Source of the DNA: Candidatus Palauibacter sp.
GTDB taxonomy: Bacteria; Gemmatimonadota; Gemmatimonadetes; Palauibacterales; Palauibacteraceae
Direction: 5' to 3'
Length of the DNA: 64,000 nucleotides
Assembly: GCF_965222475.1 (NCBI RefSeq)
Contig: NZ_CBDCUB010000008.1
Coordinates: 619,020-683,019 of the forward strand
The notes under the pieces were generated by a model. The model was not told the DNA's origin. It saw nothing but the letters and a program-made list of their open reading frames with translations, and ran no database searches. This document shows, piece after piece, positions 4,075 to 25,530 of this stretch; positions within the stretch are counted from its first letter, which is position 1, and each line of letters starts with the position of its first letter. Made by a program: the position numbers and the translations under genes.

Positions 4075-4105
4075 GACCGGCGGTGAGGGTCGGGTTGAGA
4101 GAGGG

Positions 4106-6520: not shown

Positions 6521-6527
6521 GAGTCGT

Positions 6528-7325
6528 CTACGGATCGGCCCAGTGATCGAGGGGGCCGCGGCCGGAGCCGAGACCCGGCGCCTGGGCGATGGCGGCGTGC
6601 GTGAAGGCGAGTCCCCGCTCGATCGCCGGCTCGAGCGCGATTCCCGAGGCCAGCCCCGCCGTGATCGCGGCCGAGAGCGTGCAGCCGGTTCCGTGGGTTT
6701 CCGTCGTCGGAACGCGGGGGGTCCGCCACACCCGCTTGCCTTCTCCGTTCCGGAACAGGTCCACCACCTCATCACCCGCCAGGTGCCCGCCCTTGACCAG
6801 CACGGCGCCCGCTCCCCGCGCGAGGATGGCCGCGGCCGCCGCGGACATGTCGGCTTCGGTCCTGACGGGTTGTCCCGCGAGGATCTCGGCCTCGGGCAGG
6901 TTGGGCGTGACGAGAGCGGCGAGGGGCAGGAGTTCTTCCAGGATGGCATCGACGGCGGCCGGGTAGAGGAGCCGGTCGCCGCTCGTGGCCACCATCACCG
7001 GGTCGACGACCAGCGGTGCTTCGAAACCGTGCAGGCCAGCGACGACGGCCCGCACGATGTCCGCGTTGGCGAGCATCCCCGTCTTCGCGGCCGCCGGTGG
7101 CAGATCCGCCCGCACCGATTCGATCTGGCGCCGTACGATCGGCGGGTCGAGCGCCTGTACCGCCTGAACCCCGATCGTGTTCTGCGCGGTCACGGCAGTC
7201 ACCGCACTCGTCCCGAACACGCCGAAGGTGTGGAAGGTCTTGAGATCGGCCTGGATCCCGGCTCCGCCCCCCGAGTCGCTCCCCGCGATCGTGAGTGCGG
7301 TGGCCCGCGCTGGCTTCTTCGGCAT
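6528..7325 (-). CDS. thiD: hydroxymethylpyrimidine/phosphomethylpyrimidine kinase
   Basis: 265 aa from [31 protein letters not shown]…[14 protein letters not shown]…[11 protein letters not shown]…VKGGHL…[14 protein letters not shown]. This is a canonical ThiD (ribokinase-like fold). The start was chosen at the Met preceding the GSDSGGGAG glycine-rich region. Confidence 0.85.
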
Positions 7326-7412
7326 CACGTATCCGCTCCGCTTGGTTCGCTCCGGTGCGCCGGTTCCGCCGGCGCGATGACACTGCGTTGTGCCTCGCCG
7401 TAAAATAAGGGT

Positions 7413-8180
7413 ATGCCGACGCGCGCGGAGATTAAGGCCTGGCGGTCGCTGCACCGCGGAAAGGGACGCCGGGAAACCGGGTGTTTCCTGGCGGAGGGGC
7501 GGCGGCTCGTCGGCGAGATGCTCGAGTGGCCGGGCCGCACGGTTGCGGTGCTGCACGCCGATGCGGCGGGCGGCGAACCGGCACTGGAGGTGCTGCTCGC
7601 GCACGCGGTGACGCGGGGTGTACGTACGGAAGCGGTGCCCGAAGCGATCATCCGGACGCTGGCCGATGCCGCCACGCCCCAGCCCATTCTCGCGATCGGC
7701 GAGGTGCCGGCGTACAGCTGGGATGACGTTGGCGGCGGCGCGATCGTGCTTCTCGACGGCGTGCAGGATCCGGGCAATGTCGGCACTCTCGTGCGCACCG
7801 CGCTCGCGCTCGGGGCCGCCGCCGTGATCGGCGTCGGGGAGGCCGCCGATCCCTGGGGGCCGAAGGCGCTGCGGGCCTCGGCGGGAGCGTCGTTCCGCGG
7901 CCCCGTCTTCCGGACGGACACCCGGGATGCCGTGGAGCGGCTGGCCGGGCGCGGGATCCCGATCTGGGTCGCCGCGGCAGGCGCCCCGCCGCTCGAGCGT
8001 CCACCGTCCGGGTCGGTTGCTCTCGCGCTGGGGAGCGAGGCGCGCGGCGTCTCGGCTCCCCTCCTCGCCGCCGCCCACCGCGTCGTCTCCCTGCCGCTCG
8101 CCCGGGGTGTGGAATCGCTGAACGTGGCCTCGGCGGGCGCCATCCTGCTCGATCGCATGCTGAGGCGGACGCCCGATTGA
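7413..8180 (+). CDS. TrmH/SpoU-family RNA 2'-O-ribose methyltransferase
   Basis: SPOUT motifs [34 protein letters not shown] and [20 protein letters not shown]. Confidence 0.8.
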
Positions 8181-8941
8181 CTGAAGCCGTGACCACGGGC
8201 GTGGCCGCACTGCTCGGCGCGGTGGCCGGCTCTTTCCTCAATGTGTGCATCGCGCGCATGCCCGCCGGGGACAGCGTCCTGCGCCCAGGCAGCCGTTGCC
8301 CGGCGTGCCACGCGACGATCCGCTGGCGCGACAACCTCCCCGTCCTCTCCTGGATCCTGCTGCGGGCGCGCTGTCGCGACTGCGGCGGCCGCATCTCCTG
8401 GCGCTACCCCGCGATCGAACTTGCAACGGCCCTCGCCTGGGGTGGCATGGTCTGGATGTACGGCACATCCGTCACCGCCCTGACGGGTGCGGTCCTGTTC
8501 ACGCTCCTCCTCGCGATCGCGGTCATCGACGCGCGCCACTACGTGATCCCCGATCCCCTCTCGCTCGGCGGGTGCGCCGCGGGCCTCGCCCTCTCGGCGC
8601 TTCCGGGGTCGACGCCGCCGCTCGGGGCGATCGCGGGCGCGGTGCTCGGGTTCGGACTTCTCTACGTCGTGGCGTGGCTGGGCGAGAAGGCGTTCCGGAA
8701 GCCGGCGCTCGGAGGCGGCGACGTGAAGATGATGGCGATGGTGGGGGCGTTCCTCGGCCCCGGCGGCGCACTCCTCACGATCTTCCTGGGGTCCCTCGCC
8801 GGGTCCCTCGCCTTCGGTCCCGTCTCACTCAGGACGGGAAAGCCCGTGCCCTTCGGGACCTTCCTCGCGCTCGGCGCGGCGGTGGCATTCCTGTTCGGCG
8901 GCGTTCTCTTCGATTGGTATCTGCGCCTGTCGACACCTTGA
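8177..8941 (+). CDS. pilD: type IV prepilin leader peptidase / N-methyltransferase (A24 family)
   Basis: N-terminal TM helix, tetracysteine zinc motif ([33 protein letters not shown]) and catalytic Asp regions (…[11 protein letters not shown]…[16 protein letters not shown]…). Start overlaps the trmH-family stop. Confidence 0.85.
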
Positions 8942-9023
8942 GACGGTCGCGCGCGGAACACCTGTGTCCCTTGCTTGGGCGCTCTCTTCCCCGCACACCT
9001 GCTCGGCCGGCTGGTCTACTCGC

Positions 9024-9848
9024 TCATCGGCCAGGCCGACGCGGGGGGTAGCCGCGGGGAATGCTGCCCATGAGGCCACACAGGTCATGGTAGGTGGCGG
9101 AGTCCACCGGCAGCGTCCGCAGCGCCGCGTCCGTCGAGGCCCCGTCAAACTTGGCTTCACCGTAGATGATGTCGTTGACCACGCACCAGGTCGATGCCTT
9201 CCCGGCCTCCCGGGATGCCGGCGGGCCGGCTGCCTCCATTGCGGCGAGGAGGTAATCCAGGCCCCGGCCCTCGGGATCCGCCAGATAGATCGCGTATAGG
9301 TCTGAGCTGGCGCGCGGTCCGCTGGGCATGGATTCGTCAAAGTCCGCTGCTTGGGAGCGGGTGTAGATGGCGGCGATCGGATCGTTCGTCTCGTCCCCTG
9401 CCAAGCCGACCATGTGCCTCTCGTACAACCCCACGAGAAGGTCGAACGCGGGCTCGTATGGGACCCCCTCCTCCGGCACGACTGCCCGAATCAACGCAGA
9501 ACGCGCATCGAACCGAACCCCAAAAGGGTATCCCGTGTCCGCCGCCAGGCGGACCAGCGACTGCGCGAGCGCGTCCAGCTCGGCTTGGGGCCGGGGCTCG
9601 AAAAGCTGCGTAAGCACGGCCGCGACCGGCGCGGCGGGGGAAGCCTCCGGATCGCGGCGTTCGACGAGCTGTCGGAGCGCGGTCTCCGGCGTCGGGATGC
9701 GCAGCTCTCCGCCCTCGTCCAGAACCATGGCCCACCGCTGGGCCCATGACTGAGGCCTGGCGTCCCCATCTCGCGCCTGTGCCGCAGCGGGCCACGGCGC
9801 CAAGGCGCTTTGGAGCACTGCCACAACCAACATCGCATCTCGCCTCAT
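9024..9848 (-). CDS. secreted hypothetical protein, module component B1 (paralog of 11107..12093)
   Basis: 274 aa with N-terminal signal-peptide-like segment (MRRDAMLVVAVLQSALAPWPAAAQA). Shares motifs with B2 (…IYLADPEGRGLDYLLAAMEA… versus …VYSADPEGRGRDYVRALFEA…). No family recognised. Confidence 0.5.
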   Translation of the reverse strand: MRRDAMLVVAVLQSALAPWPAAAQARDGDARPQSWAQRWAMVLDEGGELRIPTPETALRQLVERRDPEASPAAPVAAVLTQLFEPRPQAELDALAQSLVRLAADTGYPFGVRFDARSALIRAVVPEEGVPYEPAFDLLVGLYERHMVGLAGDETNDPIAAIYTRSQAADFDESMPSGPRASSDLYAIYLADPEGRGLDYLLAAMEAAGPPASREAGKASTWCVVNDIIYGEAKFDGASTDAALRTLPVDSATYHDLCGLMGSIPRGYPPRRPGR

Positions 9849-9894
9849 GCCTCAGCTCCTCGTCTACTGCAGAGAATCCCTCGCGCCGGACCCG

Positions 9895-11094
9895 TCACGG
9901 GCACGCCGTCCCGGTGTGGCCCAGAGCCGTCGGTCTGTCGAGCACCCAGCCTCCCGCCCATCGGTAGTGCCAGAACGGCGCGGCTGCGGTCGCCTCAGAC
10001 ACGTTGAAATCCATCCCTTCGCGCATAGCTCTCTCCACTTCGGTCAAGAGCATTCTAGCTTGCTCCGTGGCGGTTTCGAGTAACCCTTCGAGCCTTTCCA
10101 ACTTGTCTCGAATATTCTGGGAGGCCCGGCAGCTCTCATACCTCGATGCGTGCTGCTCCTCGTGCTGCTTAACGGGATCATGGAACGACGAACGGGCCGT
10201 CCCGGTGCCACATTCCTCGTTCACCTCGTAAACCGTGGCCGGATCGCCCAGTTGCGCGTGGTTCCCGCAATGCTGCCGGAGTTCGTGCGCCGTCACGACG
10301 CCAGTAGTCTCATAAGCCCAGGGTCGTTCCGGGTTGGTCGGCTTAAGATCCGGATGTATGTAGAACTGCGCGACTATGGTCTCCGCCGGCCAGGAGATGT
10401 AGCGCGTGCCCTGCCACGGTCCCGTTCCCGAGCCCGCAACCAGCCCCGGGATGTTGACGGCGAACCGCCCCCATTCGTCACTTGCCCAAGATTCTGTGTG
10501 CGGAGTAGCGTACACAGGAATGGTACCTGCAGCAGGAAAGGCCCACATCCCTGCCCCCACCTCGACGATCCCGGTCATCGTCGTGTCGGCGACTTCCGGT
10601 CCCGAGATGCTGACGGTCATGCTGATCGTGCTCGTGGCCGTTCCCTCCCAACTGGTGAAGTCCTCTTCGGTATCGGCGGGGCGCGCCACGCCCGCTCCCG
10701 TCACCCAGGCGTAGTTGAGGTCGGAGAGCGTCACGGCGGTGTCGGTCGTCGTCACGTAGCAACCCCCGGTTGAGCCACGCGGCGGTGAGTTGCAGTTCAA
10801 GTTGAACGCCACCACCCTGGATCCCTCGTCGCCGTCGTCGCCGCCCTTGGGGTTGGTCCCGCCGAGACCGATGGGGAAGCCCGTGCCCTTCGGGACCTTC
10901 CTCGCCCTCGGCGCGATCATGGCATTCCTATTCGGGGACACCCTCTTCGATTGGTATCTGCGCCTCCGGATTCCGATGGCCAATCCGTCGTAAGATTCCG
11001 GGTCTCTCTCCGGCGTCCCGGATCTGGAGGCGAAGATGCAGCCAGCTAAGGCGCGTGACGGGGCGCTGGTCCCCAATAGGGTCTGGGCCCGCAA
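9895..11094 (-). CDS. HExxH-motif protein A1, 5'-truncated paralog of 12074..13951. The annotated first ~75 codons are antisense to a pilD 3' fragment and are probably not native.
   Basis: Shares the IGLGGTNPKGGDDGDEGSRV…RGSTGGC.VTTTDTAVTL…TST.SMTVSISGPEVADTTMTGIVEV core and a C-terminal FHDPVKQHEEQH (HExxH) with A2. Homology to A2 begins only at about 10870. Upstream of that the ORF is complementary to a copy of the pilD 3' end. Confidence 0.45.
   Translation of the reverse strand: MRAQTLLGTSAPSRALAGCIFASRSGTPERDPESYDGLAIGIRRRRYQSKRVSPNRNAMIAPRARKVPKGTGFPIGLGGTNPKGGDDGDEGSRVVAFNLNCNSPPRGSTGGCYVTTTDTAVTLSDLNYAWVTGAGVARPADTEEDFTSWEGTATSTISMTVSISGPEVADTTMTGIVEVGAGMWAFPAAGTIPVYATPHTESWASDEWGRFAVNIPGLVAGSGTGPWQGTRYISWPAETIVAQFYIHPDLKPTNPERPWAYETTGVVTAHELRQHCGNHAQLGDPATVYEVNEECGTGTARSSFHDPVKQHEEQHASRYESCRASQNIRDKLERLEGLLETATEQARMLLTEVERAMREGMDFNVSEATAAAPFWHYRWAGGWVLDRPTALGHTGTACP
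10868..10975 (+). repeat. ~108-bp copy of the pilD 3' end (about 90% identical to 8830-8940); tandem-duplication junction
   Basis: Encodes [31 protein letters not shown], near-identical to the PilD C-terminus at 8830-8940, but lies inside the 5' part of the minus-strand A1 ORF. Confidence 0.6.
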
Positions 11095-11106
11095 CCAAGC
11101 CGCATC

Positions 11107-12093
11107 TTACATGATCCCAGGATAACAGAGCTCCTTGAACACCTCGGGATCGGGCGGATCGGCGACGTCGTCGGGCCTGCGGGGGCGGGTGGCTCCGGGC
11201 TCGTACATGAGGAACCGTCCCGCCTCGCACCACACGGACGGGTTGTAGGGTTTCGGGCACTCCGGCAGCGCGAGCCACGCCTCATGCCCCTCCTTGGAGC
11301 TAGCCGTGATCTCCCCATCCGGGCCCATGACCAACGGGACCAACCCCCGGCGGCACACTGGGGGCGGAAGCGGCTCGCTCGCCTCGAACAGGGCGCGCAC
11401 GTAGTCCCGGCCCCGCCCCTCGGGGTCAGCCGAGTAAACACTGATGAGGGCCCCAACCAGTCCGGAAGCGGCGAGCGCGGGGCCCGTGCGATAAGCCTCG
11501 CGGAACGGATCGTCCCCGCCGCCGGCCAGCAGCCGGGCCGCGCGCGTATCGTAAACGCGCACCAGCGCGTCGAACGCCTCCGGGTAGGGCGTGCCCCGCA
11601 GGTAGGATGCGTGGCGCTGCGCCGTCGACAGCGTGGCGTAGGCCTTGGATCGGACCAGGTACTGGTCGGACGAGTACTCCGCGTCGATCAGCAGAATGTC
11701 GGCGAGGGCGTCCACCAGCGCCTCCTGCTCCGCCTGCGTGCGGGGACCGTGCTCCTCCCTCAGCAACGCGACGGCGGGCGAGTTGTCCGGGTCCGGATCG
11801 TTCAGCAGGCTCCAATCGCCGCGTAGCGCCCGCAGCGCCTCGTCCGTGGTCGGCACCCGCCAGCCTCCTCCCTCGTCCAGCACGAGCCCCGGCGCCCACG
11901 CCCGCCCCCGCTCCCCGGGCTCCCGCTCCTGCGCCGGTAACGCTTCCGGCGCGAGAAGCCCGGTCCACGCGACCGCCGCCAATACTCTCCAAATCGATCC
12001 CGTAGCCATGTGCCCTCCTCCTCCGAATGGTCCGCTGGTCGCCGGCGCCGAAGTGCACTGCGGAGACTTCGGACTACCGGCAGGGACCCGCAC
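11107..12093 (-). CDS. secreted hypothetical protein, module component B2 (paralog of 9024..9848). Probable start is the internal Met at about 12009.
   Basis: A signal-peptide-like MATGSIWRVLAAVAWTGLLAPEALPAQ follows an unlikely 28-aa leader. Paralogous motifs shared with B1. Confidence 0.5.
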   Translation of the reverse strand: MRVPAGSPKSPQCTSAPATSGPFGGGGHMATGSIWRVLAAVAWTGLLAPEALPAQEREPGERGRAWAPGLVLDEGGGWRVPTTDEALRALRGDWSLLNDPDPDNSPAVALLREEHGPRTQAEQEALVDALADILLIDAEYSSDQYLVRSKAYATLSTAQRHASYLRGTPYPEAFDALVRVYDTRAARLLAGGGDDPFREAYRTGPALAASGLVGALISVYSADPEGRGRDYVRALFEASEPLPPPVCRRGLVPLVMGPDGEITASSKEGHEAWLALPECPKPYNPSVWCEAGRFLMYEPGATRPRRPDDVADPPDPEVFKELCYPGIM

Positions 12094-13951
12094 GGTGCCC
12101 TTGGATGGGGAGCGTGAGGTACACCCAGGTTGTCCCGCGGCCGCCGCGCTGCGTGGGGGTTACGCCCGGCGTATAGTCCCAATAATCCCACACGAGCTGG
12201 CTGGTGAAGCCCGCAACGGCGCCGCCAGTGGAGCCCAAGACCTTGTCCCTATAATACGTGCGCCATGCACGCTCCAAGTCCTGTTTCAACGTCTGCCGGT
12301 CGCCGCTTACGAGGGTCTCCATGTCCGCTTGGTCCCCTCTCGCCGCCTGGGCGCTAAGGCAGGCGGCGATGGCGTCTTGGTGGTCATTCTCGTGCCCGAT
12401 CAAATCCCTCTCGAACGCTGTCAGGTTCGGCCCCGAACCGCAATTCGTGTTCACCGTGACGAGGTTCGCGCGGGCGGGCAGGGCAGTGGCATGGCAATGC
12501 TGGTTTGCGGGGAGCAGGTTCGCGCCCGGGTATCCACGGTCCTGCGGGTCCAGGTCGTTGTGGACTACGATCGTGGCCGGAATCGTCAGGCTGCCCACGC
12601 CATGCTGGCCGGCCCACGGACCGCTACCGTCAAAGACGGCGTCGTCGGTGAGCGCCGACGTGTGTGTGGGGGGTTCGTACATGCCGAACGTGCCGTCCGT
12701 CCAGGTACCCGTATACGAGACTGAGGAACTCAGCGACACCACCGACGAGGTGCGTGCAGTCACCTCGACGATCCCGGTCATCGTCGTGTCGGCGACTTCC
12801 GGTCCCGAGATGCTGACCGTCATGCTGAGCGTGCTCGTGGCTCTTCCCTCCCACCTGGTGTAGTCCGTTCGGCCCCCTATGGGGCGCGACACGCCCGCTC
12901 CGGTCCGCCAGGCATAGGTAAGGTCGGCAAGCGTCACGGCCGTGTCGGTCGTCGTAACGCGGCAACCTCCGGTCGAGCCACGGCTCGGTGACGAGCAGTT
13001 CAATCGGAACGCCGCGACCCTGGATCCCTCGTCGCCGTCGTCGCCGCCCTTGGGGTTGGTCCCGCCGAGACCGATGCGGCCCGTGCCCGGATTCCGGGGA
13101 GGGATAAGGGTCCCCCATTCCGTGCCCTCGCCGACGAAGTTTAGCACGCAGTCGTCTTCAAATACATCATAGTCCAACCCGACCGGGCACGTCCGTCCCG
13201 TCGTCACGAGGATCTCCTTCATCTGGGCAGGTTCGCACTCCGTTTCGGGTTCGGGGTCGTAGCAGCCCTCGCGCTGCGCCGCGAGCAATGATCGGGGCGC
13301 GGCCCAGCCCGACGCCAGCCTCCAGAGCTCAGCCCACGGTCCGCCCCCCGACGGTCGCGCCGAGGCCCACACCTTGTCGGGCAGCGGAATCCCCACGTCC
13401 TTGAGAATCGCCTTCACGCTCCCGGTCGCCTCCTGACTCGCGCGCTCGGTCCCGGGGAGCAGGCAAACGGCCAGAACGGCCACCCGCTCGGGAAGCACCT
13501 CCTTGCCACCGTCGGACTTGGGCCGGCTCACGGTAACCAGCACCTTGTATTGCTGGCCCCACACCTCGTCGGTGTCACCCTTCGCCTCGGGGCTGAACTC
13601 CAGCACGTACTTCCGGGAGACGTAGCTTCCCGTGGCGGTCCCGAAGTAGAACTCGCACCCCGGCCCGCCGATCCCCTGGATGACCGTCTGCCACGACGGC
13701 AGACTGTCCACATCGGCGCTGAGCCCGGCCTGCGACACGACCGGTGCCCGGGCCGACGCATCCCCACCGGTGGGGGCGGGCTCCCAAAAAAAGTCGGAGC
13801 ACCCCAGGAGTCCTGCCCCCGATGCTCCCGCCACAAGGAATGCCTGCCCGATCCGCAGCCTGAAACGCGGAGGCGCTTCTCGTGGCACTGAAAGTCGGGA
13901 GGGACGACGGCGAAACGACGAGGAGAGACCAGCGCGCGGCCACCTGAACAT
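12074..13951 (-). CDS. HExxH-motif putative lipoprotein A2 (full-length paralog of A1); possible zinc-metallopeptidase-like secreted protein
   Basis: 625 aa. N-terminal hydrophobic stretch ends in LLGC (lipobox-like). Conserved core shared with A1. C-terminal …CGSGPNLTAFERDLIGHENDHQDAIAAC carries an HExxH motif aligned with HEEQH of A1. Confidence 0.5.
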   Translation of the reverse strand: MFRWPRAGLSSSFRRRPSRLSVPREAPPRFRLRIGQAFLVAGASGAGLLGCSDFFWEPAPTGGDASARAPVVSQAGLSADVDSLPSWQTVIQGIGGPGCEFYFGTATGSYVSRKYVLEFSPEAKGDTDEVWGQQYKVLVTVSRPKSDGGKEVLPERVAVLAVCLLPGTERASQEATGSVKAILKDVGIPLPDKVWASARPSGGGPWAELWRLASGWAAPRSLLAAQREGCYDPEPETECEPAQMKEILVTTGRTCPVGLDYDVFEDDCVLNFVGEGTEWGTLIPPRNPGTGRIGLGGTNPKGGDDGDEGSRVAAFRLNCSSPSRGSTGGCRVTTTDTAVTLADLTYAWRTGAGVSRPIGGRTDYTRWEGRATSTLSMTVSISGPEVADTTMTGIVEVTARTSSVVSLSSSVSYTGTWTDGTFGMYEPPTHTSALTDDAVFDGSGPWAGQHGVGSLTIPATIVVHNDLDPQDRGYPGANLLPANQHCHATALPARANLVTVNTNCGSGPNLTAFERDLIGHENDHQDAIAACLSAQAARGDQADMETLVSGDRQTLKQDLERAWRTYYRDKVLGSTGGAVAGFTSQLVWDYWDYTPGVTPTQRGGRGTTWVYLTLPIQGHRAGPCR

Positions 13952-13967
13952 CCATCCTCCCGGGCAG

Positions 13968-14101
13968 AAGGGGACTCACGCCCGGGACTCACGCCCGGGA
14001 CTCACGCCCGGGACTCACGCCCGGGACTCACGCCCGGGACTCACGCCCGGGACTCACGCCCGGGACTCACGCCCGGGACTCACGCCCGGGACTCACGCCC
14101 G
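13968..14101. repeat. tandem array of about 10 copies of a 13-bp unit (CCCGGGACTCACG), 17 bp upstream of the A2 start codon
   Basis: A perfect head-to-tail …gggactcacg cccgggactcacg cccgggactcacg… runs across about 134 bp. Each unit contains a CCCGGG palindrome. The unit length is not a multiple of 3. Confidence 0.85.
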
Positions 14102-14208
14102 AAGATGCTGCGACAGGCCCCCCTCAAACAAGGGAACGGACAGGGGACGACCGGAGCGGGATCGATGAGAAGACCAGGTGGGCCGGGATCCGCCGGACGG
14201 ATGCCGCG

Positions 14209-14905
14209 CTAATCGCGGCGGATCCGGGCTCGCGTCACCTGCGTGTCGGTGCTCGCCACGACCTGGATCCGCACATCGCCGTGCTCGACCACCTCTCCCG
14301 CCTCGGGCACCCGGCCCAGCTCGCCCAGAAGGAAGCCGTTCAGCGACCGGTGCTCGGCCACGGGGAACGACGTGTCGAAAAAGTCGTTGATCTCCCGCAG
14401 TTCGGCGCCGCCATCCACCGCGATCTCGTCCCGCCGCAGCTGGATGATGGGCTCCGGCGGTACATCCGTTTCGTCGACAATGTCGCCGACCAGCTCCTCG
14501 AGGATGTCCTCGAGCGTCACGAGCCCGTCGAGCCCGCCGTGTTCATCCACCACGAGCCCCATGTGCACGCGCCGCGCGCGGAACTGCTCGAGCAGTTCGA
14601 TGAGAATGATCGTGTCCGGCACGAAGTAGGGTTCGCGGGCGAAGCTGGAGAGCGTCAGGTTCCGCCGGCCGCCGAGAAGCGCTTGGTACGCCTCGGTGCG
14701 GTACAGCACGCCGGTCACGTCATCGAGCGACTCGCCGTACACCGGGATCCGGCTGAAGCGCACGTCCGCCAGTGCCTCCGCGATGTCTCCGAGCCTGCGC
14801 GAATCCTCCCAGCCAGGATGTCGACGCGGGGCGTCATGATCTCCCGGGCACGCAGACGGTCGAGAGTGAACACCCGGTCGATGAACTGCCGTTCTCAACG
14901 TGTGC
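14209..14905 (-). pseudogene. truncated, frameshifted paralog of corC (CBS-pair plus CorC_HlyC C-terminal two-thirds only, no DUF21 membrane domain)
   Basis: About 80% nt identity to 15644-16330 of the intact corC (…RIPVYGESLDDVTGVLYRTEAY…VDEHGGLDGLVT…EDILEE…). Homology starts abruptly at about 14905, and a 1-nt deletion near 14810 shifts the frame relative to corC. Confidence 0.6.
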
Positions 14906-15607
14906 ATCTCCCGCATGCCCGCCGGCGAGAGCGTGGTCCGCCCGCGCAGCCGCTGCCCGGCCTGCGGCGCGACGGTCCGCTGGTTCGACAACATCCCCGT
15001 CGTCTCCTGGGTGCTCCTGCGCGCGAGGTGCCGCGACTGTGCGGCCCGGATCTCCTGGCGCTACCCGGCGGTCGAACTCGCCACGCTGGGCATCTGGGTC
15101 GGCATGGCGTGGCAGTACGGGGCGTCGGCCGCCGCCCTCGGCGGCGCGGTCCTGTTCACGCTGCTGCTCGGGATCGCGGTCACCGACGCCTTGCACTACG
15201 TGATCCCCGATCCGCTCTCCCTCGGCGGGCTCGCGTCGGGGCTCGCCGCGTCGCTCCTGCCGGGCCTCACGACGCCGCTCGCCGCGGCCGGCGGCGCGGC
15301 ATTCGGCTTCGGGCTCCTGTTCGTCGTGGGACGCCTCGGCGAGAAGGTTCTCGGAAAACCCGCCCTCGGCGGAGGCGACGTGAAGCTGATCGCGATGGTC
15401 GGGGCCTTCCTGGGCCCGGCCGGCGTCCTCCTCACCATCTTCCTGGGTGCGCTGGCCGGCTCCGTCGTCTTCGGGCCGGTCTCGCTCCGGACCGGGAAGC
15501 CGGTTCCGTTCGGGACGTTCCTCGCTCTCGGCGCCGCCGTCTCGTTCCTGTTCGGCGATGCGCTGATCGACGCCTATCTGCGCCTCGCCACGTCCGCGAG
15601 CGGGTGA
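14900..15607 (+). CDS. prepilin peptidase paralog lacking the N-terminal about 20 residues (first TM helix); possibly non-functional
   Basis: [51 protein letters not shown]… is about 75% identical to PilD at 8177-8941. Homology begins at …FLNVCI… at about 14905, exactly where the corC-derived sequence ends. Confidence 0.6.
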   Translation: MCISRMPAGESVVRPRSRCPACGATVRWFDNIPVVSWVLLRARCRDCAARISWRYPAVELATLGIWVGMAWQYGASAAALGGAVLFTLLLGIAVTDALHYVIPDPLSLGGLASGLAASLLPGLTTPLAAAGGAAFGFGLLFVVGRLGEKVLGKPALGGGDVKLIAMVGAFLGPAGVLLTIFLGALAGSVVFGPVSLRTGKPVPFGTFLALGAAVSFLFGDALIDAYLRLATSASG

Positions 15608-15643
15608 CGGGGAGCGGCTGGCCGCGCCCGCCGATCCGGGCGG

Positions 15644-16867
15644 CTAGCGCCGGCGGATGCGTGCGCGGGTCACCTGCGTGTCGGTGGTCTCGACCACATG
15701 GATCCGCACGTCGCCGTGATCCAGGACCTCGCCCGCTTCCGGAACCCGTCCGAGTTCACCGAGCAGAAACCCGTTGAGGGAGCGGTGCTCGAGCACCGGG
15801 AACGAAGTTCCGAAAAAGTGGTTGATCTCCCGAAGTTCCGTCGCCCCGTCCGCGAGGATTTCGTTCCGGCCGAGCGCGACGATCGACTCCCCCGGCTCGT
15901 CCGTCTCGTCCTCGATGTCGCCGACGACTTCCTCCAGGATGTCCTCCATCGTCACGAGTCCGTCGAGCCCGCCGTGTTCGTCGACGACCAGCGCCATGTG
16001 CACCCGGCGCGCCCGGAACTGCTCCAAAAGTTCGATCAGGGTGATCGTCTCGGGCACGAAGTAGGGTTCCCGGGCGAGCTTCGAGAGCGGGACATCCCGC
16101 TGCCCGTCGAGGAGCGCCCGGTACGCCTCGGTCCGGTACAGCACGCCCGTGACGTCATCCAGCGAGTCGCCGTACACGGGGATCCGGCTGAAGCGGAGGT
16201 CGGACAGTTCGTCCTCGATGTCGCCGAGGCGGCGCGAGTCCTCCCACGCGAGGATGTCGACCCGCGGGGTCATGATCTCCCTCGCACGCAGCCGGTCCAG
16301 GGTGAACACCCGGTCGATGAACTGGCGCTCGTGCGCCTCGATGTCGCCCGCCTGCTGGCCGAGGCGCGCCATGGCGCGGATCTCCCACTCGCTCACGTGC
16401 GTGGCCGACTCGGCCTCGGGAAGCACCCGCCCGACGAGCCATTCCAGGGGTAGCACCACCGGCAGGAGGAAACGGCCGAGCCCCCCGATGAAGGGAGCGG
16501 CGAGGAGGGACAGGCGTTCCGCGTTGCGCGCCGCGAAGCTCTTCGGCGTGATCTCCCCGAAGATGAGGACGAGAAGCGTCATCACGCCCGTGGCGAGACC
16601 CACCCCGGCGGAGCCGAACAGCTCGGTCGCGGTGTAGGTGGCGACGGCGGCGGCGCCGATGTTGGCGACGTTGTTCCCGATCAGGATCGTGATGAGGAGC
16701 CGCTCGGGGTGCTGTTTCAGCTTCTCGAGCGAGCGCGACCCGGGGCGCCGCTCCTGCGCGAGCGCCCGGACCCTCGTTTCACCGAGCGAAAAGAGCGCGA
16801 TCTCGGTGCCGGAGAAGAAGCCCGACAGCACGAGGAGGAGCGCGAGGAGCGCGAGGGTGCCGATCAC
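15644..16867 (-). CDS. corC: CorC/HlyC-family transporter-associated protein (DUF21 TM domain, CBS pair, CorC_HlyC)
   Basis: 407 aa with four N-terminal TM helices, CBS-pair region (…REIMTPRVDILAW…RIPVYGDSLDDVTGVLY…) and C-terminal transporter-associated domain. Confidence 0.85.
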   Translation of the reverse strand: MIGTLALLALLLVLSGFFSGTEIALFSLGETRVRALAQERRPGSRSLEKLKQHPERLLITILIGNNVANIGAAAVATYTATELFGSAGVGLATGVMTLLVLIFGEITPKSFAARNAERLSLLAAPFIGGLGRFLLPVVLPLEWLVGRVLPEAESATHVSEWEIRAMARLGQQAGDIEAHERQFIDRVFTLDRLRAREIMTPRVDILAWEDSRRLGDIEDELSDLRFSRIPVYGDSLDDVTGVLYRTEAYRALLDGQRDVPLSKLAREPYFVPETITLIELLEQFRARRVHMALVVDEHGGLDGLVTMEDILEEVVGDIEDETDEPGESIVALGRNEILADGATELREINHFFGTSFPVLEHRSLNGFLLGELGRVPEAGEVLDHGDVRIHVVETTDTQVTRARIRRR

Positions 16868-16965
16868 CGGTGTCGTACCCCGGCGGCTCGCGGCGGGATC
16901 CCGCGTTGCGCCGCCTGTTCACGACCCGGCGGTGAGGCGCCCGTACTGTCGGTTTCGTCCAAGTT

Positions 16966-18066
<1,101 letters not shown>

Positions 18067-18116
18067 TATGGTCGCAGCAACGTAGGCTTTCTCTGCCCAG
18101 CGTCAAGCGAAACCGG

Positions 18117-18178
18117 CATTGCGAAATTTTTCACAAGCGGACAGATTGCGCTCGCGAAATTTTTCACAAGCGGTGGCG
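18117..18178. promoter_or_regulatory. two copies of a 20-bp AT-rich direct repeat (GCGAAATTTTTCACAAGCGG) 17 bp apart, upstream of the atp operon
   Basis: attGCGAAATTTTTCACAAGCGGacagattgcgctcGCGAAATTTTTCACAAGCGG. An A/T-rich motif stands out in a ~70% GC genome. It lies between the divergent moxR and atpZ-like genes. Confidence 0.35.
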
Positions 18179-18208
18179 GCGCGGCGCGGGCGATGGAGAT
18201 GTCACCCC

Positions 18209-18520
18209 ATGCGACAGCCGTATCGCGGGTCGGCGAACCGGCCGGAACCTGAAGAACCCGAGGAGGGCGCCGCACGCCTGTACGCGAAGGCGGCGGGCAG
18301 CGAGTTCGCGAGCCTCGGCATCGCCATGGGCCTGGCGATCGCGCTCCTCGCCGTCGGCGGCAACTGGCTGGATGGCCGTCTCGGGACCGCACCCCTCTTC
18401 GTGCTCCTCGGCGTGTTCTCGGGGTTCGCGGGGAGTTGCTACAGCCTGTTCGGCCGGCTGGCGGCCCGGCGCGCGGCGTCGGTGGCCGATGAGGCCGACG
18501 AGACGGACTCAGGCGCTTGA
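18209..18520 (+). CDS. AtpZ/AtpI-family small membrane protein (ATP synthase gene-1-like)
   Basis: Two TM helices with the characteristic …LGIAMGLAIALLAVGGNWLDGRLGTAPLFVLLGVFSGFAGSCYSLF…. The ORF track starts at 18119, but the internal Met at 18209 fits the family length. Confidence 0.55.
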   Translation: MRQPYRGSANRPEPEEPEEGAARLYAKAAGSEFASLGIAMGLAIALLAVGGNWLDGRLGTAPLFVLLGVFSGFAGSCYSLFGRLAARRAASVADEADETDSGA

Positions 18521-18930
18521 GCGGCCGCCGAGGCGGGCCGTCGCGCGGCCGGCTGATGTACGCGCTGGTCACGCTGGGGCTGGCCGCGGTGGCCGCGGCC
18601 CTGGCCGGCGGGGGCGATCGCGCGTGGGGTATCGCCACGGCCTGGGTGATCCAGGTCGCGGCGATGGGACCGCTGGACCGGGCGCTGGTCGCCGGACGGA
18701 AGGCAACGAAGCCCTGGCTGGGCGGGATCGCCCTCCGCGCGGGAGGGCTGATCGTGACGGCGGGGCTGGCATGGTCCGCGGCGGCCACCCCCGACCTGCC
18801 GATCGCTTACGCGATCGCGGTGTTGGTGCTGTTGTGGGGCGAGGCCATTCGACTCACGCGCGGGCTCAGGCGAGCCGGTGAGGCGGGGGGCCGGACGGAC
18901 GAACTCGACACGGAACGAAAGACCGGATGA
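18517..18930 (+). CDS. putative ATP synthase protein I-like membrane protein
   Basis: 137-aa multi-TM protein in the position usually occupied by atpI, directly before atpB. Assigned by context only. Confidence 0.4.
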   Translation: MSGRRGGPSRGRLMYALVTLGLAAVAAALAGGGDRAWGIATAWVIQVAAMGPLDRALVAGRKATKPWLGGIALRAGGLIVTAGLAWSAAATPDLPIAYAIAVLVLLWGEAIRLTRGLRRAGEAGGRTDELDTERKTG

Positions 18931-19928
18931 ACCCGGTACTCGATAGATCGATGACCCCCTCCGGGAAGCTGGCGGGTTGGGTGCAGGAGCATGCCCCCGC
19001 GGCGGTCGCTGCGGCCCAGGAACACGGCGAGGCCGCGGCGGCGGGCGCGCACGCCCCCGAGGAGTGGGGCACCGACGTCATGATGCACCACGTCGTGGAC
19101 TCGAACGTGTGGGAGTTCGGGCCCTTCGGCGAGATCCATCTCCCGGAGTTCCCCCCGCTGCATGTCGGCGGCCTCGAGATCGACCTCTCGATCACGAAGC
19201 ATGTTCTGTTCCTCATGTTCGCGACCGTCCTCACCATCATCACGATGTTCATCGCCGCCCGTTCGACGCGGCGACTGGAGGAGGGCGAGAAGGCGCCGGG
19301 AGGGCTGCTCAACGGGATCGAGGCCTTCTATCTCTACCTGAGGGATGACATCGTCATGGCCAACATCGGCCGTGGCGGCGAGAGGTTCGTCCCGCTCGTC
19401 ATCACCCTCTTCTTCTTCATCCTGTATGCGAACCTGCTCGGTCTCATCCCCTTCGGCGCGACGGCGACGGGGAACATCATGGTCACGGCGGCGCTGGCCA
19501 TCATCGCGCTCGTCGTGATCGAGACGGCGGGTTTCGTAGCCCTGGGGCCGGTGGGCTACGCGAAGACGGTGTTCTTCCTGCCGCCGGGGCTGCCGACGGC
19601 GCTGAAGCCGCTCATGCTGATCATCATGGCCCCGGTCGAGTTGATCGCGAAGTTCTCGAAGATCATGGCGCTCGCGATCCGGCTGTTCGCCAACATGACG
19701 GCGGGTCACTTCGCCCTCCTCGCCTTCATGGGGCTCATCCTGACGTACGGGCCGATGGTGGGCGAGGATGGGGTCTTCGGGCTCGCGGTCGGCGGCGCGA
19801 CGATCCTGGGGTCGTTGGGCCTCGCGCTGTTCGTGATGATGCTCGAGATCTTCATCTCGCTTCTGCAGGCGTACATCTTCGCGATGCTGACGTCGGTGTT
19901 CATTGGGTTGATCCGCCACGCACACTGA
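18927..19928 (+). CDS. atpB: F0F1 ATP synthase subunit a
   Basis: C-terminal …LAIRLFANMTAGHFALLAFMGL… with the essential Arg in the a-subunit motif. Confidence 0.9.
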   Translation: MNPVLDRSMTPSGKLAGWVQEHAPAAVAAAQEHGEAAAAGAHAPEEWGTDVMMHHVVDSNVWEFGPFGEIHLPEFPPLHVGGLEIDLSITKHVLFLMFATVLTIITMFIAARSTRRLEEGEKAPGGLLNGIEAFYLYLRDDIVMANIGRGGERFVPLVITLFFFILYANLLGLIPFGATATGNIMVTAALAIIALVVIETAGFVALGPVGYAKTVFFLPPGLPTALKPLMLIIMAPVELIAKFSKIMALAIRLFANMTAGHFALLAFMGLILTYGPMVGEDGVFGLAVGGATILGSLGLALFVMMLEIFISLLQAYIFAMLTSVFIGLIRHAH

Positions 19929-20027
19929 TCCGCGAGGCGACTCGCGAAACTCCCGCGCCGGAGGTGCGCGGACTGAACGGGGGCGTCGTCCGGACCCCCG
20001 ACAGGGAAAGGAAACCGGAGCAATACG

Positions 20028-20291
20028 ATGCTGAACATGTTGACGCTGCTACAGGAGGCCATGTCGACCGGCCAGGGCCTCGCGATCGGTCTGGCCATCG
20101 TCGGAGGCGGGCTCTCGGTACTCGGGGCCGGTGTCGGAATCGGCCTCATCGGCGGGCGCATGACGGAAGCGATGGCCCGTCAGCCCGAAGAGGCGCAGAC
20201 CATCCAGTTGGCCGCGATCGTGCTGGCCGTGTTCATCGAGGGTGTAGCGCTGTTCGGGCTCGTGATCGCCGCCTTCATTCGGGGCATCTGA
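20028..20291 (+). CDS. atpE: F0F1 ATP synthase subunit c
   Basis: 87-aa hairpin proteolipid (…GLAIGLAIVGGGLSVLGAGVGIGLIGGRMTEAMARQPE…FIEGVALFGLVIAAFI). Confidence 0.9.
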   Translation: MLNMLTLLQEAMSTGQGLAIGLAIVGGGLSVLGAGVGIGLIGGRMTEAMARQPEEAQTIQLAAIVLAVFIEGVALFGLVIAAFIRGI

Positions 20292-20842
20292 TGCGTTCGG
20301 TCGGACTCGGCGCGATCGCGGGGTTTGCGGCGCCACTGAAGCTGGCCGCCCAGTCGGAGACGGGGATCTTCTCGCTCAATGTGGGGCTCGTGGTGTGGAC
20401 GTGGATCCTGTTCGGGCTCACGCTCCTCGTTCTGGTGAAGTGGGTCTTCCCGCTCATCTCCGGAGGGCTCGAGCAGAGGCACGAGAAGATCCAGGGCGCC
20501 ATCGACGAGGCCCTCTCCGCACGCGATGAGGCCCAGGAGTTGCTGGCCAGGCAGGAGGCCGCGCTGGAAGCGGCGCGCGGCGAGGCGCGGGAGATGCTGG
20601 AACATGCCCGCCAGCACGCCGACGGCCTCCGGAAGGAGATTCTCGAGGAGGCGCGGGCACAGCAGGCCCAGATGCTCGACGACGCGCGACGGGAAATCGG
20701 ACACGAGCGGGACCGGCTGCGCGAGGAGATCCGGCGGGATGCGGTGGATCTCGCGCTGGCGGCGTGCGAACGGCTGATCCGGGCCCGGCTGGACGCCGAG
20801 GAGAACCGGCGGCTCGTCCGCGAGTTCGTGTCGGGCGTATAG
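20291..20842 (+). CDS. atpF: F0F1 ATP synthase subunit b
   Basis: Single N-terminal TM helix followed by a long charged coiled-coil (…ARDEAQELLARQEAALEAARGEAREMLEHARQHADGL…). The ATG overlaps the atpE stop (ATCTGATG). Confidence 0.8.
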   Translation: MRSVGLGAIAGFAAPLKLAAQSETGIFSLNVGLVVWTWILFGLTLLVLVKWVFPLISGGLEQRHEKIQGAIDEALSARDEAQELLARQEAALEAARGEAREMLEHARQHADGLRKEILEEARAQQAQMLDDARREIGHERDRLREEIRRDAVDLALAACERLIRARLDAEENRRLVREFVSGV

Positions 20843-20869
20843 CGGTCCGATGACGGAGCGAGCGGAGCG

Positions 20870-21403
20870 ATGAGCGCGTCGGCGGTGGCCCGCAACTATG
20901 CGGCGACTCTCTTCGATCTCGCGGCACGGGACGGGAGCGAGGCGGAGTACGGGCGGCTGATCGAGGAGATCGGAGACCTGTACACGAACGTCCCGGAGTT
21001 TCAGCGCTTCCTGGAGGTGCCCGCGGTGTCGCTGTTCGAGAAGAAGGAGGCGATCCAGGCGGCTCTTTCCGGCCGGGCGCCGAATCTCTTCGTCCGCTTT
21101 CTGATGGTCGTGCTGGACCGCCACCGGCAGCGGGCTCTCCCCGGAGTCGCTCGCGCCTACCGCGATCTCCTGGACGCGAGGGCGGGGCGCGTCAGGGCCA
21201 GCGTGACGCTGCCGTTCGAGGCGGATGACCGCGTCCGGAGCGAGGTGGTTGCAGCGCTCCAGCGGCGCTTCGAGCGGGAGGTCGTTCCCGAATTCCACAT
21301 GGATCCGAACATCCTGGGCGGCGTGATCATCCGGGTCGGCGACGAGTTGCTGGACGCCTCGCTGCGGAGGCAACTCGAGCGGATGCGCCGCGAACTGTAC
21401 TGA
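20870..21403 (+). CDS. atpH: F0F1 ATP synthase subunit delta
   Basis: 177 aa beginning …ARNYAATLFDLAARDG… and ending …LGGVIIRVGDELLDASLRRQLERMRREL, the typical OSCP/delta pattern. Confidence 0.8.
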   Translation: MSASAVARNYAATLFDLAARDGSEAEYGRLIEEIGDLYTNVPEFQRFLEVPAVSLFEKKEAIQAALSGRAPNLFVRFLMVVLDRHRQRALPGVARAYRDLLDARAGRVRASVTLPFEADDRVRSEVVAALQRRFEREVVPEFHMDPNILGGVIIRVGDELLDASLRRQLERMRRELY

Positions 21404-21453
21404 GACCTCTGTACCGGGAAGTTCGTACCGGAGAATAGAGAAGAGAAGAGAAT

Positions 21454-23091
21454 ATGACAGGTTTCGACAGCTCTCTTCGAGCGAGCGAGATCAAGAAGGC
21501 CCTGCTCGAGCAGATCGACCGCTACGAGGAGGAACTTCGGGTCGAGGAGGTGGGCGAGGTCCTCGAGGTGAAGGACGGCGTGGCCCGTATCTGGGGCCTT
21601 TCCACATGCGTGGCCAACGAGATGCTCGAGATCACGTCCCGCCACACCGGGGTCTCGGTGACCGGTCTCGCCTCGAACCTCGAGGAAGACAACATCGGCG
21701 CCGTGATCCTCGGCGACTATCTGGCCCTGAAGGAGGGCGACCCGGTGCGCCGCACGGGCCGCGTGCTCTCCGTACCCGTGGGCCCGGACATTCTCGGCCG
21801 CGTCGTGGACACGCTGGGCCAGCCCGCCGATGGCCGCGGACCGATCGAGACCGTGACCTACATGAAGGTCGACCGGAAGGCGCCCGGCATCGTCTACCGG
21901 CAGCCCGTGAACGAGCCGCTGCAGACCGGGCTGAAGGCGATCGACTCGATGATCCCGATCGGGCGCGGGCAGCGCGAGCTGATCATCGGGGACCGCGGCA
22001 CGGGCAAGACGGCCGTGGCGATCGACGCCATCATCAACCAGCGGGGTCAGGACGTCGTCTGCGTCTACTGCGCGATCGGGCAGAAGGGTTCGACGGTCGC
22101 CGGCATCGTCGAGCGGCTGCGCGAGGAAGGCGCGCTCGACTATACGGTCGTGGTGGCCGCGAACGCCTCGGACCCGGCGCCCATGCAGTTCATGGCCCCC
22201 TACGCCGCGTGCGCGATCGGCGAGTACTTCATGTACGAGGAAGGCCGGGCGGTCCTCGTGATCTACGACGACCTCAGCAAGCAGGCCGACGCGTACCGCG
22301 AGGCGTCCCTCATCCTGCGCCGTCCGCCGGGGCGCGAGGCGTACCCCGGGGACGTCTTCTATCTCCACAGCCGTCTGCTCGAGCGGGCCGCCAAGATCAG
22401 CAACGATCCCGAGGCGATCGCCGGCCATCCGGACATCAGGAAGCCCGGCGGTTCGCTGACCGCGCTCCCGATCATCCAGACGGCGGCCGGCGACGTGTCG
22501 GCCTACATCCCGACGAACGTGATCTCGATTACCGACGGCCAGATCTTCCTTGAGACCGACCTCTTCTACTCGGGCATCCGTCCGGCCGTGAACGTGGGGA
22601 TCTCGGTCTCACGCGTAGGAGGGAACGCGCAGATCAAGGCCATGAAGAAGGTCGCCGGACGTCTCCGGCTGGACCTCGCGCAGTTCCGCGAGATCGAGGC
22701 CTTCGCACAGTTCGGCACCGAACTTGACGCGGCGACGCAGCGGCAGCTGGACCGCGGCCGGCGGACCGTCGAGGTCCTCAAGCAGGGGCAGTACGACCCG
22801 ATGCCGGTCGAGGAGCAGGTGATGGTGATCTTCGCCGCCACGCAGGGATTCCTCGACGACCTCGAGGTGTCGAGCCTCCGCGGCTGGGAGGTCGGATTCC
22901 TCGAGTACATGCGGACACGCCATTCGGGGGTCGGAGAGGCCATCCGGGAGGAGAGGGAGATCTCGAGCGAGACCGAAGCCGCGCTCCGCGCGGCGATCGA
23001 GTTCTACTCGGACACCTTCGCCCACGACGGCACCTCGCGCACCGACGGTTCGGAAGCCGCGGCGAGTCCGGCCGCGGCCGTGACGGCGTAG
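21454..23091 (+). CDS. atpA: F0F1 ATP synthase subunit alpha
   Basis: P-loop [18 protein letters not shown], …[11 protein letters not shown]…, 545 aa. Confidence 0.95.
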
Positions 23092-23109
23092 GGCAGCCGG
23101 GGCGGGGGC

Positions 23110-23976
23110 ATGAGCAAGTCGAGAGACATCTATCGGCGGATGAAGTCCGTCGACAGCACGAAGAAGATCACGCGAACCATGGAGATGGTCGCGACCGCCA
23201 AGCTCGCGCAGGCGCAGGGGCGGGTGATCCGCGCGCGCCCGTACTCGGCCCAGCTGATGGACATGATCGCCCGGCTCGCCACGCCGGATCTGGCGGAGTC
23301 CCAGCCCCTGCTGCGGCAGCCCGACCGCATCGCGCGGGCCGCGGTCGTGCTCGTGACGAGCAATCGGGGACTGTGCGGTGCCTTCAACGCGAACCTCATC
23401 CGAACCGCGCAGGCGCAGCTTCGGGAGCTGGGGGAAGCCGGGGCCGCCATCGAGTTCCACGTCTACGGGAACAAGGGGATCTCCTACTTCCGGTTCCGGG
23501 GCGTCGAAATGGCGCACGCCCGCAACGACCTCGGGGATCCTCCGGCCACGGAGGATGCGCGGAGTCTGATCGAGGACCTGGCCGCCCGCTTCGTGTCGGG
23601 CGAACTGGATGCGGTCCGGCTCGTGTTCGCGGAGTTCCGAAACATGGTCAGCACGCCGCCCAGGGTCCGGCAGATTCTGCCGGTCGGCGTCGGAGAGGCG
23701 CGCAGCGGGCCGCAGCCCTTCTACATCCTGGATCCGTCGGAGGACGGGATTCTCGACCATCTCCTGCCGCTCTACGTCACGAATTCGACGTACAGCGCGC
23801 TCCTCGAGACGGCGGCGGCGGAGCAGGCCGCCCGCCGTACGGCGATGAAGTCGGCGACGGACAACGCCAACGACTTTCTCGACAACCTGCGACGCACGTA
23901 CAACCGCGCCCGCCAGGCCGAGATCACCAACCAGATCGCGGAGATCATCGGCGGTGCGGACGCACTCGATGGATAG
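23110..23976 (+). CDS. atpG: F0F1 ATP synthase subunit gamma
   Basis: MSKSRDIYRRMKSVDSTKKITRTMEMVATAKL… N-terminal helix, C-terminal …NRARQAEITNQIAEIIGGADAL. Confidence 0.9.
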   Translation: MSKSRDIYRRMKSVDSTKKITRTMEMVATAKLAQAQGRVIRARPYSAQLMDMIARLATPDLAESQPLLRQPDRIARAAVVLVTSNRGLCGAFNANLIRTAQAQLRELGEAGAAIEFHVYGNKGISYFRFRGVEMAHARNDLGDPPATEDARSLIEDLAARFVSGELDAVRLVFAEFRNMVSTPPRVRQILPVGVGEARSGPQPFYILDPSEDGILDHLLPLYVTNSTYSALLETAAAEQAARRTAMKSATDNANDFLDNLRRTYNRARQAEITNQIAEIIGGADALDG

Positions 23977-24026
23977 CATGCACGGGGGCGGCGACGCCCC
24001 TCACGAACCGAAAGCCATGAGGCTGA

Positions 24027-25478
<1,452 letters not shown>

Positions 25479-25530
25479 GCGGGCGCGACCGGGACGGCCG
25501 CGCCGCGCCGGGGCGCGAGGGAGGCGGCTG

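Follow-up and report, generated by a model that had tools for sequence, protein, structure and literature searches.

The window, by which we mean the whole 64,000-nucleotide stretch of DNA that was analysed, comes from Candidatus Palauibacter (Gemmatimonadota), a group of marine sediments and sponges (PMC10469786). It carries one intact and one partial copy each of pilD and corC and, between the two long pilD copies, an island of A and B genes with a tandem repeat and a short third piece of pilD (Table 1).

Table 1. Features of the pilD/corC locus, in window coordinates
Feature	Position	Strand	Description	Basis
pilD	8177..8941	+	intact, 254 aa, D-type; full A24_N_bact + Peptidase_A24	Pfam
A1	9024..9848	-	274 aa, partner of B1'; signal-peptide-like N-terminus	own reading of the N-terminus
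B1'	9895..10872	-	N-terminally truncated 'orphan' B with a different C-terminal HExxH domain	alignment to B2
Third pilD	10870..10965	+	last 96 nt of the gene (3' fragment)	self-BLASTN
A2	11107..12009	-	300 aa, partner of B2	gene call in L002
B2	12074..13951	-	625 aa, lipoprotein-like, polymorphic HExxH C-terminal domain	alignment
13-bp tandem repeat	13971..14101	.	GGGACTCACGCCC, 10 copies	TRF
corC'	14209..14894	-	D-type C-terminal ~227 codons; CBS + CorC_HlyC, no CNNM	BLASTN, Pfam
Crossover	14889..14894		imperfect microhomology CC(G/T)TTC; exact shared triplet TTC at 14892-14894	window vs L004 corC vs L083 pilD
pilD'	14900..15607	+	R-type, without codons 1-~19 (TM1)	Pfam, hydropathy scan
corC	15644..16867	-	intact, 407 aa, R-type; CNNM + CBS + CorC_HlyC	Pfam

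An earlier note on this DNA had described a frameshifted C-terminal fragment of corC joined head to head to a truncated pilD, and had called for a comparison of the region with itself. Self-BLASTN of the window returned two direct-repeat pairs, which adjoin at 14894. One pairs pilD with pilD' (8237-8928 against 14894-15585, 77.2% identity, E = 1e-152) and the other corC' with corC (14216-14894 against 15651-16330, 80.6%, E = 9e-179), both corC copies lying on the minus strand; corC' and pilD' abut head to head at 14892-14894. Together with Pfam and pairwise alignment, these matches bear out the described structure and the identity of about 80% given for the two corC copies. The pilD homology, which the note began at about 14905, does start at a junction, although its true first position is 14894, 11 nt away.

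The two partial genes are also built as had been proposed. The A24_N_bact match of pilD' begins only at position 12 of the 84 in the profile, so that the domain is incomplete, and a hydropathy scan confirms that TM1 (PilD residues ~5-28), the first transmembrane helix, is missing; the Peptidase_A24 domain is matched with E = 6e-17. An in-frame TGA at 14867-14869 means that the pilD' reading frame can start no earlier than the GTG at 14900, which is replaced by ATG in one related genome (L085). The frame is open in all four junction-bearing genomes described below, and the segments TDALHY and GGGDVK, which we take to hold the two catalytic Asp of characterised prepilin peptidases, are conserved. 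corC' retains only the CBS and CorC_HlyC parts, with the intact corC beyond it. The single-nucleotide deletion that had been placed near 14810 was found at ~14812 by pairwise alignment to corC, which revealed no further indel; it sits inside the first CBS motif and is present in all four junction genomes. A crude six-frame scan of the 64-kb window for a prepilin leader motif found none which, as a weak test, agrees with the earlier statement that the window has no pilin gene. A promoter and terminator scan of both strands of 13900-15700 gave nothing and is uninformative in a genome this rich in GC, and a PDB sequence search with PilD gave no match.

The island combines a conserved N-terminus, a variable C-terminal domain, an adjacent variable small gene and a truncated downstream copy. 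B1' aligns to residues ~282-564 of B2 at 45% identity, and the conserved B block is 86% identical between 10558-10888 and 12761-13088 by self-BLASTN. A1 is 34% identical to A2, is nearly identical in L085 (3 differences) and has no match in Pfam or NCBIfam. B2 has only 10 homologues, all from Ca. Palauibacter, whose alignment displays an LLGCSD lipobox and invariant H520, E521 and H524. Searches of Pfam and NCBIfam with B and A returned no toxin, immunity or delivery family, the HExxH motif being the only recognisable element, and an AlphaFold2 model of B2 from an 11-sequence alignment was unusable (pLDDT 29.7). Genome L086 also has a B/A pair, at an unrelated locus.

Within the island, the third pilD fragment is 86% identical to 8833-8928 and 75% identical to 15494-15586. 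It is joined to the interior of B at ~10870-10888, where a CCCGTGCCC motif is shared, and this forms a second illegitimate junction. Both the fragment and this junction are absent from L085 and L089, which lack a 1.87-kb segment (10888-12761) comprising the pilD 3' fragment, A2 and the C-terminal part of B2, and which have a single hybrid B each. With this second junction, the earlier suggestion that pilD recurs at breakpoints is factually correct, but nothing points to site specificity. The gene simply lies beside the island, and an event would be likely to persist only if it left one intact pilD and one intact corC.

Intact pilD/corC arrangements, which the earlier note had proposed to look for in relatives, were found in four genomes: L003 and L004, the nearest species in the genome collection, and the closer L083 and L088. 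All four have the order PfkB <- SpoU -> pilD -> <- corC <- MoxR without island or fragments, and for L088 this canonical arrangement stands in a circular 4.29-Mb genome. Two further genomes, L090 and L091, have canonical loci of other lineages, likewise with neither island nor fragments. L083 and L088 carry, beside corC-MoxR, an intact 257-aa pilD allele 96% identical to pilD' (P0001 in L083). The earlier note had held that relatives in which pilD' is N-terminally complete at this position would speak against the junction; such an allele exists, but it represents the ancestral state and not a false junction, since the junction itself recurs in four assemblies. The protein cluster of PilD' contains truncated members of 230 or 235 aa on the four junction contigs and many intact 257-aa members elsewhere, from which it follows that the pilD/corC structure is polymorphic within a species-level group.

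The four assemblies in which junction and frameshift are identical are that of the window; GCA_965197755.1 (L002, L084 and L087; a 1.01-Mb contig from sample ERZ25067264); L085, a 1.32-Mb contig from a different sample (ERZ25068966); and L089, a 4.32-Mb chromosome-level record (OZ244149.1). The locus in GCA_965197755.1 is 99.6% identical to that of the window, with 27 SNPs and four 13-bp repeat units differing; 14 of the SNPs relative to L002 are clustered at 11442-11761 in A2. A Logan contig from ERR13605531 matches window positions 15052-17017 at 100%, including two positions at which the window and L002 differ, so that these two assemblies are distinct and represent closely related strains. 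Among JGI metagenome contigs, an exact-pattern scan for the junction gave 0 matches.

The two sides of the junction have different affinities. To the left, PfkB, SpoU, the intact pilD and corC' (the D side) are ~92-93% identical to L004 and ~82% to L083; to the right, pilD', corC, MoxR and the atp operon (the R side) are ~96% identical to L083. The dS between the window and L004 is 0.14-0.27 left of 14894 (PfkB, SpoU, pilD, corC') and 0.70-0.72 right of it (pilD', corC, MoxR). Right of 14894 the window is an outgroup to L003 and L004, and a sliding three-way comparison agrees with this breakpoint. Nucleotide identity to L083 is 95.5-96.6% over 14889-25574 and just 82.4% over 3108-8928. Thus, the genes on either side form a two-lineage mosaic, and the single-copy flanking genes split in affinity in the same way as pilD and corC do.

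The duplicated genes follow this division. Identity of pilD and corC' is 92-93% to L004 against 77-80% to L083; for pilD' and corC it is 96-97% to L083 against 76-80% to L004. For single genes, the intact pilD has 92% nucleotide and 93% amino-acid identity to that of L004 and 77% nucleotide identity to that of L083; corC' has 93.5% nucleotide identity to the L004 gene and 80% to the intact corC of its own genome; and the intact corC is 97.4% identical to that of L083 over the C-terminal part compared. In a pilD identity matrix, one clade (R, 96-99%) holds the pilD' of the window, L085 and L089 with the pilD of L083 and L088, and the other (D) holds the intact pilD of the window with those of L085 and L089 (96-100%), L004 (92%) and L003 (84%); identity between the clades is 75-78%. 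On these sequence affinities the two pilD and the two corC copies, which the earlier note took for paralogs, are to be regarded as xenologs from two lineages and not as duplicates made within the genome, and the junction appears as a phylogenetic breakpoint rather than a duplication boundary. dN/dS between the copies of each pair is low (0.15-0.23, at dS 0.7-0.8). We rejected functional paralogs as the explanation, because the copies diverged as orthologs in separate lineages and the ratio is no sign of selection on paralogs.

The point of exchange can be read from a three-way comparison. The window is L004-type corC through ...GATGAACTGCCGTTC (ending ...CGTTC) and thereafter L083-type pilD (...TCAACGTGTGCATCTCC...), with 100% identity over the first 56 nt. 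This comparison and the microhomology of 3-6 nt at the join support the earlier proposal that the junction was made by illegitimate recombination. Among the junction-bearing genomes only two sites vary within ~120 nt either side, namely 14891 (G in the window, L002 and L085; T in L089) and 14900 (A in L085 only).

The corC'/pilD' junction is real. Taken together, these results lead us to regard it as the non-homologous end of a DNA import between lineages, the scar of one homologous and one non-homologous crossover; we give this reading a probability of roughly 0.78. The recipient would have been an R-type Ca. Palauibacter with the order katG - DeoC - Aldedh - PfkB - SpoU - pilD >< corC - MoxR - atp, and the donor a D-type lineage whose closest sampled relative is L004. 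The donor would have delivered a stretch of ~10.5 kb holding a TA module, DeoC, Aldedh, PfkB, SpoU and a complete pilD together with the 3' part of corC; the A/B island probably came with it. On the left, a homologous crossover would have fallen at the 5' end of katG, within a conserved block; on the right, donor corC at about codon 181 would have been joined illegitimately to resident pilD at about codon 19-20, at CC(G/T)TTC. Some 5.4 kb of resident DNA, from DeoC to codon 19 of pilD, would thereby have been replaced, probably in one step. The product would keep an intact imported pilD and an intact resident corC, with corC' (imported and later frameshifted) and pilD' (resident) as leftovers.

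Evidence for the left crossover comes from L085. Its katG is 99-100% R-type up to position ~2100-2250 and then becomes D-type in register, directly past a stretch with 93-97% conservation between the two types. The D tract of L085 therefore has R-type DNA on both sides. From there to the junction it runs for ~10.5 kb (HigB/HTH module, DeoC, Aldedh, PfkB, SpoU, pilD, island, corC'), against ~5.4 kb for its canonical R-type counterpart (L083 4600-10056). Several observations count against an import or leave it less complete. Only in L085 was R-type DNA seen left of the D tract, and there only over ~2.1 kb of katG, and the window's own katG is ~91% identical to every relative. The window's left boundary was not found when its genome was extended by 5.9 kb leftward, and synteny with L083, L003 and L004 ends left of katG, beside an IS; a further replacement in katG masks this boundary. 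A protein search with corC' for a donor with the island beside an intact D-type corC found none, its matches being mostly short or partial proteins and its two best contexts the canonical loci of L090 and L091.

The cassette appears to have had a later history of its own. When the window is compared with L085, divergence is 4-5% in the flanking core genes and ~0.7% in the island (A1 and the C-terminal part of B1), and the junction core (14774-15081) has a difference at 1 of 308 nt. To the right of the junction L085 is window-like for ~460 nt and L083-like after that. In L089, corC' is recombinant between the other two haplotypes and changes over somewhere between 14441 and 14479, and the amino-acid sequence of PilD' equals the intact allele P0256. 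We infer that the cassette moved afterwards among diverged R-type backgrounds, and was patched, by ordinary homologous recombination.

Selection on the fragments has to be considered with this exchange in mind. In the comparison of the window with L085, dN/dS is 0.19 in pilD' and 0.23 in corC', as for intact genes. Such low values are unexpected for pseudogenes decaying in place, and to this extent they count against a reading of the fragments as import remnants. The recombinant corC' and the PilD' of L089, together with the near-invariant junction core, suggest that the low ratios stem from homologous exchange with intact alleles, so that much of the variation between the fragments of the window and L085 was probably imported. 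dN/dS therefore argues neither for nor against a function of the fragments.

The content of the island invites a further reading, in which the cassette spreads as a unit, A/B is an undescribed system of antagonism and immunity or of surface variation, and PilD' is retained as an active peptidase. What points to it is a lipoprotein confined to Palauibacter, with a polymorphic HExxH domain, a secreted partner, an orphan module and a variable 13-bp repeat upstream, which has 10, 6, 5 and 4 copies in the four junction-bearing assemblies. We consider it unlikely.

A two-step origin is the form of the import that most closely competes with a single event. A D-type fragment would have circularised and entered by a Campbell-type single crossover, giving a merodiploid from which an illegitimate deletion, from corC codon ~180 to pilD codon ~19, later removed the DNA between. 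This route yields the same mosaic and the same microhomology junction, its end product being identical to that of one-step homology-facilitated illegitimate recombination (HFIR), and linear DNA that enters E. coli commonly circularises and then integrates by a single crossover (PMC3240628). It would also have left corC' and pilD' intact for a time, which fits their low dN/dS, and the near-invariance of the junction core is what a deletion allele of recent origin, spread by homologous recombination, would show. Against it, neither the PilD' cluster members nor the loci examined included a merodiploid with two complete loci, junction and frameshift are both common to 4 of the 4 junction-bearing genomes, and more steps are needed. 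We judge this route rather improbable.

A function for the fragments themselves, kept by selection, seems to us more doubtful still. PilD' would then be a catalytically competent prepilin peptidase without TM1, and corC' a soluble CBS/CorC_HlyC protein like E. coli CorC. The open frame of pilD' in four genomes, its conserved segments, the ATG of L085 and the low window-L085 dN/dS are all consistent with this; loss of an N-terminal transmembrane helix could leave the remaining topology unchanged, and RefSeq annotates both fragments as ordinary proteins. However, the frameshift inside the first CBS motif of corC' is found in every genome that carries it, the differences in corC' have a relaxed codon-position spectrum (14:7:6 for third, second and first positions), and the PilD' of the window and L085 has an L-to-F change where every other aligned sequence keeps L. 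No promoter-like site was found upstream of pilD' (a weak test), recombination with intact alleles can account for the low dN/dS, and an intact copy of each gene is present. It is thus as remnants that pilD' and corC' are most likely to be understood, one intact pilD and one intact corC having been kept.

A tandem duplication in situ, the alternative nearest to the view of the earlier note, running from pilD codon ~20 to corC codon ~181 and followed by long divergence and a later insertion of A/B, predicts exactly the observed topology: a full pilD, a corC fragment, a pilD fragment and a full corC, as direct repeats. It predicts neither the 92% identity of pilD to L004 and 96% of pilD' to L083, with only 77% between them, nor the corresponding 93%, 97% and 80% for corC', corC and the pair; nor does it account for the same split in the single-copy flanks. 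It is absent from conspecific genomes (L083, L088) and requires divergence to a dS of 0.7-0.8 under purifying selection while the copies were truncated, which makes it highly improbable.

Least probable of all, to a degree that is practically negligible, is an assembly mis-join of two Palauibacter populations co-occurring in a metagenome: the lineages behind the two sides are indeed ~18% divergent, D-like and R-like genomes do occur in related datasets and the independent Logan contig L001 ends at 15052, short of the junction, but junction and frameshift recur identically in assemblies from at least two samples, one of them at chromosome level, these four assemblies are distinguished by SNPs, by the number of modules and by repeat copy number, and a mis-join at homologous sequence would be collinear rather than fuse the interior of corC to that of pilD at 3-6 nt of microhomology.

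Read as an import with one non-homologous end, the locus represents ordinary, well-documented bacterial gene import and no new molecular system. It offers a natural example, from an uncultured genus of marine Gemmatimonadota, of how such a cross-species import creates apparent gene duplicates, with both parental types and several recombinant haplotypes sampled. There is a practical lesson in it, as the genes annotated as ordinary proteins in RefSeq, pilD' and corC', are most likely remnants, and paralog counts and dN/dS may mislead in highly recombining populations. The A/B cargo island is the sole part with real unexplained content.

Each fragment remains an unmistakable member of its family by what it retains. 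pilD' belongs to the prepilin peptidases of the PilD type (MEROPS A24A) and differs from them in having lost TM1 of A24_N_bact. corC' belongs to the CNNM/CorC transporters (DUF21-CBS-CorC_HlyC) and differs in lacking the entire CNNM (DUF21) membrane domain and in the frameshift that breaks the reading frame through the CBS pair and CorC_HlyC.

As a recombination event, the locus resembles HFIR, which is recognised by a homologous end, an illegitimate end with 3-10 bp of microhomology and an insertion coupled to a deletion (PMC3240628), and for which two later papers (PMC3240628, PMC5361080) cite de Vries & Wackernagel 2002, Prudhomme et al. 2002 and Meier & Wackernagel 2003. Here too, one end of the tract switches lineage in homologous register (katG in L085), the other is a non-homologous join at 3-6 nt of microhomology, and insertion is coupled to deletion. 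The scale is different, and counts against the import reading: ~10.5 kb of D-type DNA would have replaced ~5.4 kb of resident DNA, as compared with the ~1 kb typical of experimental HFIR events (PMC3240628). Donor and recipient are ~17-19% divergent.

The HFIR model has also been proposed for orphan effector/immunity arrays, such as those of the V. cholerae T6SS and of Rhs/CDI systems (PMC5361080). The island is likewise arranged as a full B2-A2 followed by a truncated B1'-A1, and the truncated pair keeps a conserved block of 330 nt before a divergent C-terminal domain. It differs from those arrays in that neither B nor A matches a known toxin, immunity or secretion family, in that no T6SS, Rhs or CDI genes adjoin it, and in that the displaced module here brought along a piece of a housekeeping gene, pilD.

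Among the genomes bearing the corC'/pilD' junction, at which a frameshifted C-terminal corC fragment (corC') meets a pilD copy without its first transmembrane helix (pilD'), just two sites vary within ~120 nt on each side of the join: position 14891, the mismatched base of the microhomology, which is G or T, and position 14900, the earliest possible pilD' start, where the assembly L085 has ATG as against GTG. RefSeq presents both remnants as ordinary proteins, with no pseudogene flag on either. We found a second illegitimate junction, at which the end of a third pilD is joined to the interior of B1'; the motif CCCGTGCCC is common to both of its parents, and this pilD fragment is absent from L085 and from L089, another junction-bearing assembly.

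Coordinates of the features in the window
Feature	Position	Strand	Remarks
katG region	208-3100		
A/B island	8942-14208		
A1	9024-9848	-	
B1'	9895-10872	-	
Third pilD, terminal 96 nt	10870-10965		86% identity to intact pilD
A2	11107-12009	-	
B2	12074-13951	-	
13-bp tandem repeat GGGACTCACGCCC	13971-14101		perfect; 20 nt upstream of annotated B2 start
corC' remnant in RefSeq	14209-14763	-	WP_419167353.1, 'transporter associated domain-containing protein'
pilD' remnant in RefSeq	14900-15607	+	WP_419167352.1, 'prepilin peptidase'
Tandem array	38395-54859		three copies of a ~5.3-kb unit, 83-89% identical

The two-gene A/B module matched no family in Pfam or NCBIfam, and a search of 5.8 billion proteins returned 10 homologues of B, with Ca. 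Palauibacter as the sole source of the module. B carries a lipobox; its N-terminal half is conserved, whereas its C-terminal domain is polymorphic but always contains HExxH (AlphaFold2 gave an unusable model of B). A, the apparently secreted partner, is variable. In its second copy the module is an N-terminally truncated 'orphan'. A related B/A pair was observed at an unrelated locus (L086).

Copies of the 13-bp repeat number 10 in the window, six in L002, five in L085 and four in L089, and the repeat may be a contingency-type variable tract influencing B expression. The junction-bearing assembly L002 is near-identical to the window, from which it differs by 27 SNPs; 14 of these are packed into 320 nt of A2 (11442-11761), and 10 of the 300 A2 residues are changed; this cluster is either a local recombination patch or the result of diversifying selection.

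On the left flank, the katG region is ~91% identical to every relative, and window katG is thus assigned to a third lineage. Between katG and DeoC lies a HigB/HTH toxin-antitoxin remnant, found only in genomes of the imported lineage (D-type) and in those bearing the junction. Directly left of the window (examined over L087 1-6100, on the same contig as L002) are an IS with a DDE_Tnp_1_4 transposase and non-syntenic genes.

Each unit of the tandem array encodes one SusC-like TonB-dependent receptor of ~1120 aa (CarboxypepD_reg and Plug) and a partner of 575-604 aa, which had no match in Pfam and is probably SusD-like. PULs have been reported to be widespread in Gemmatimonadota (PMC10469786).
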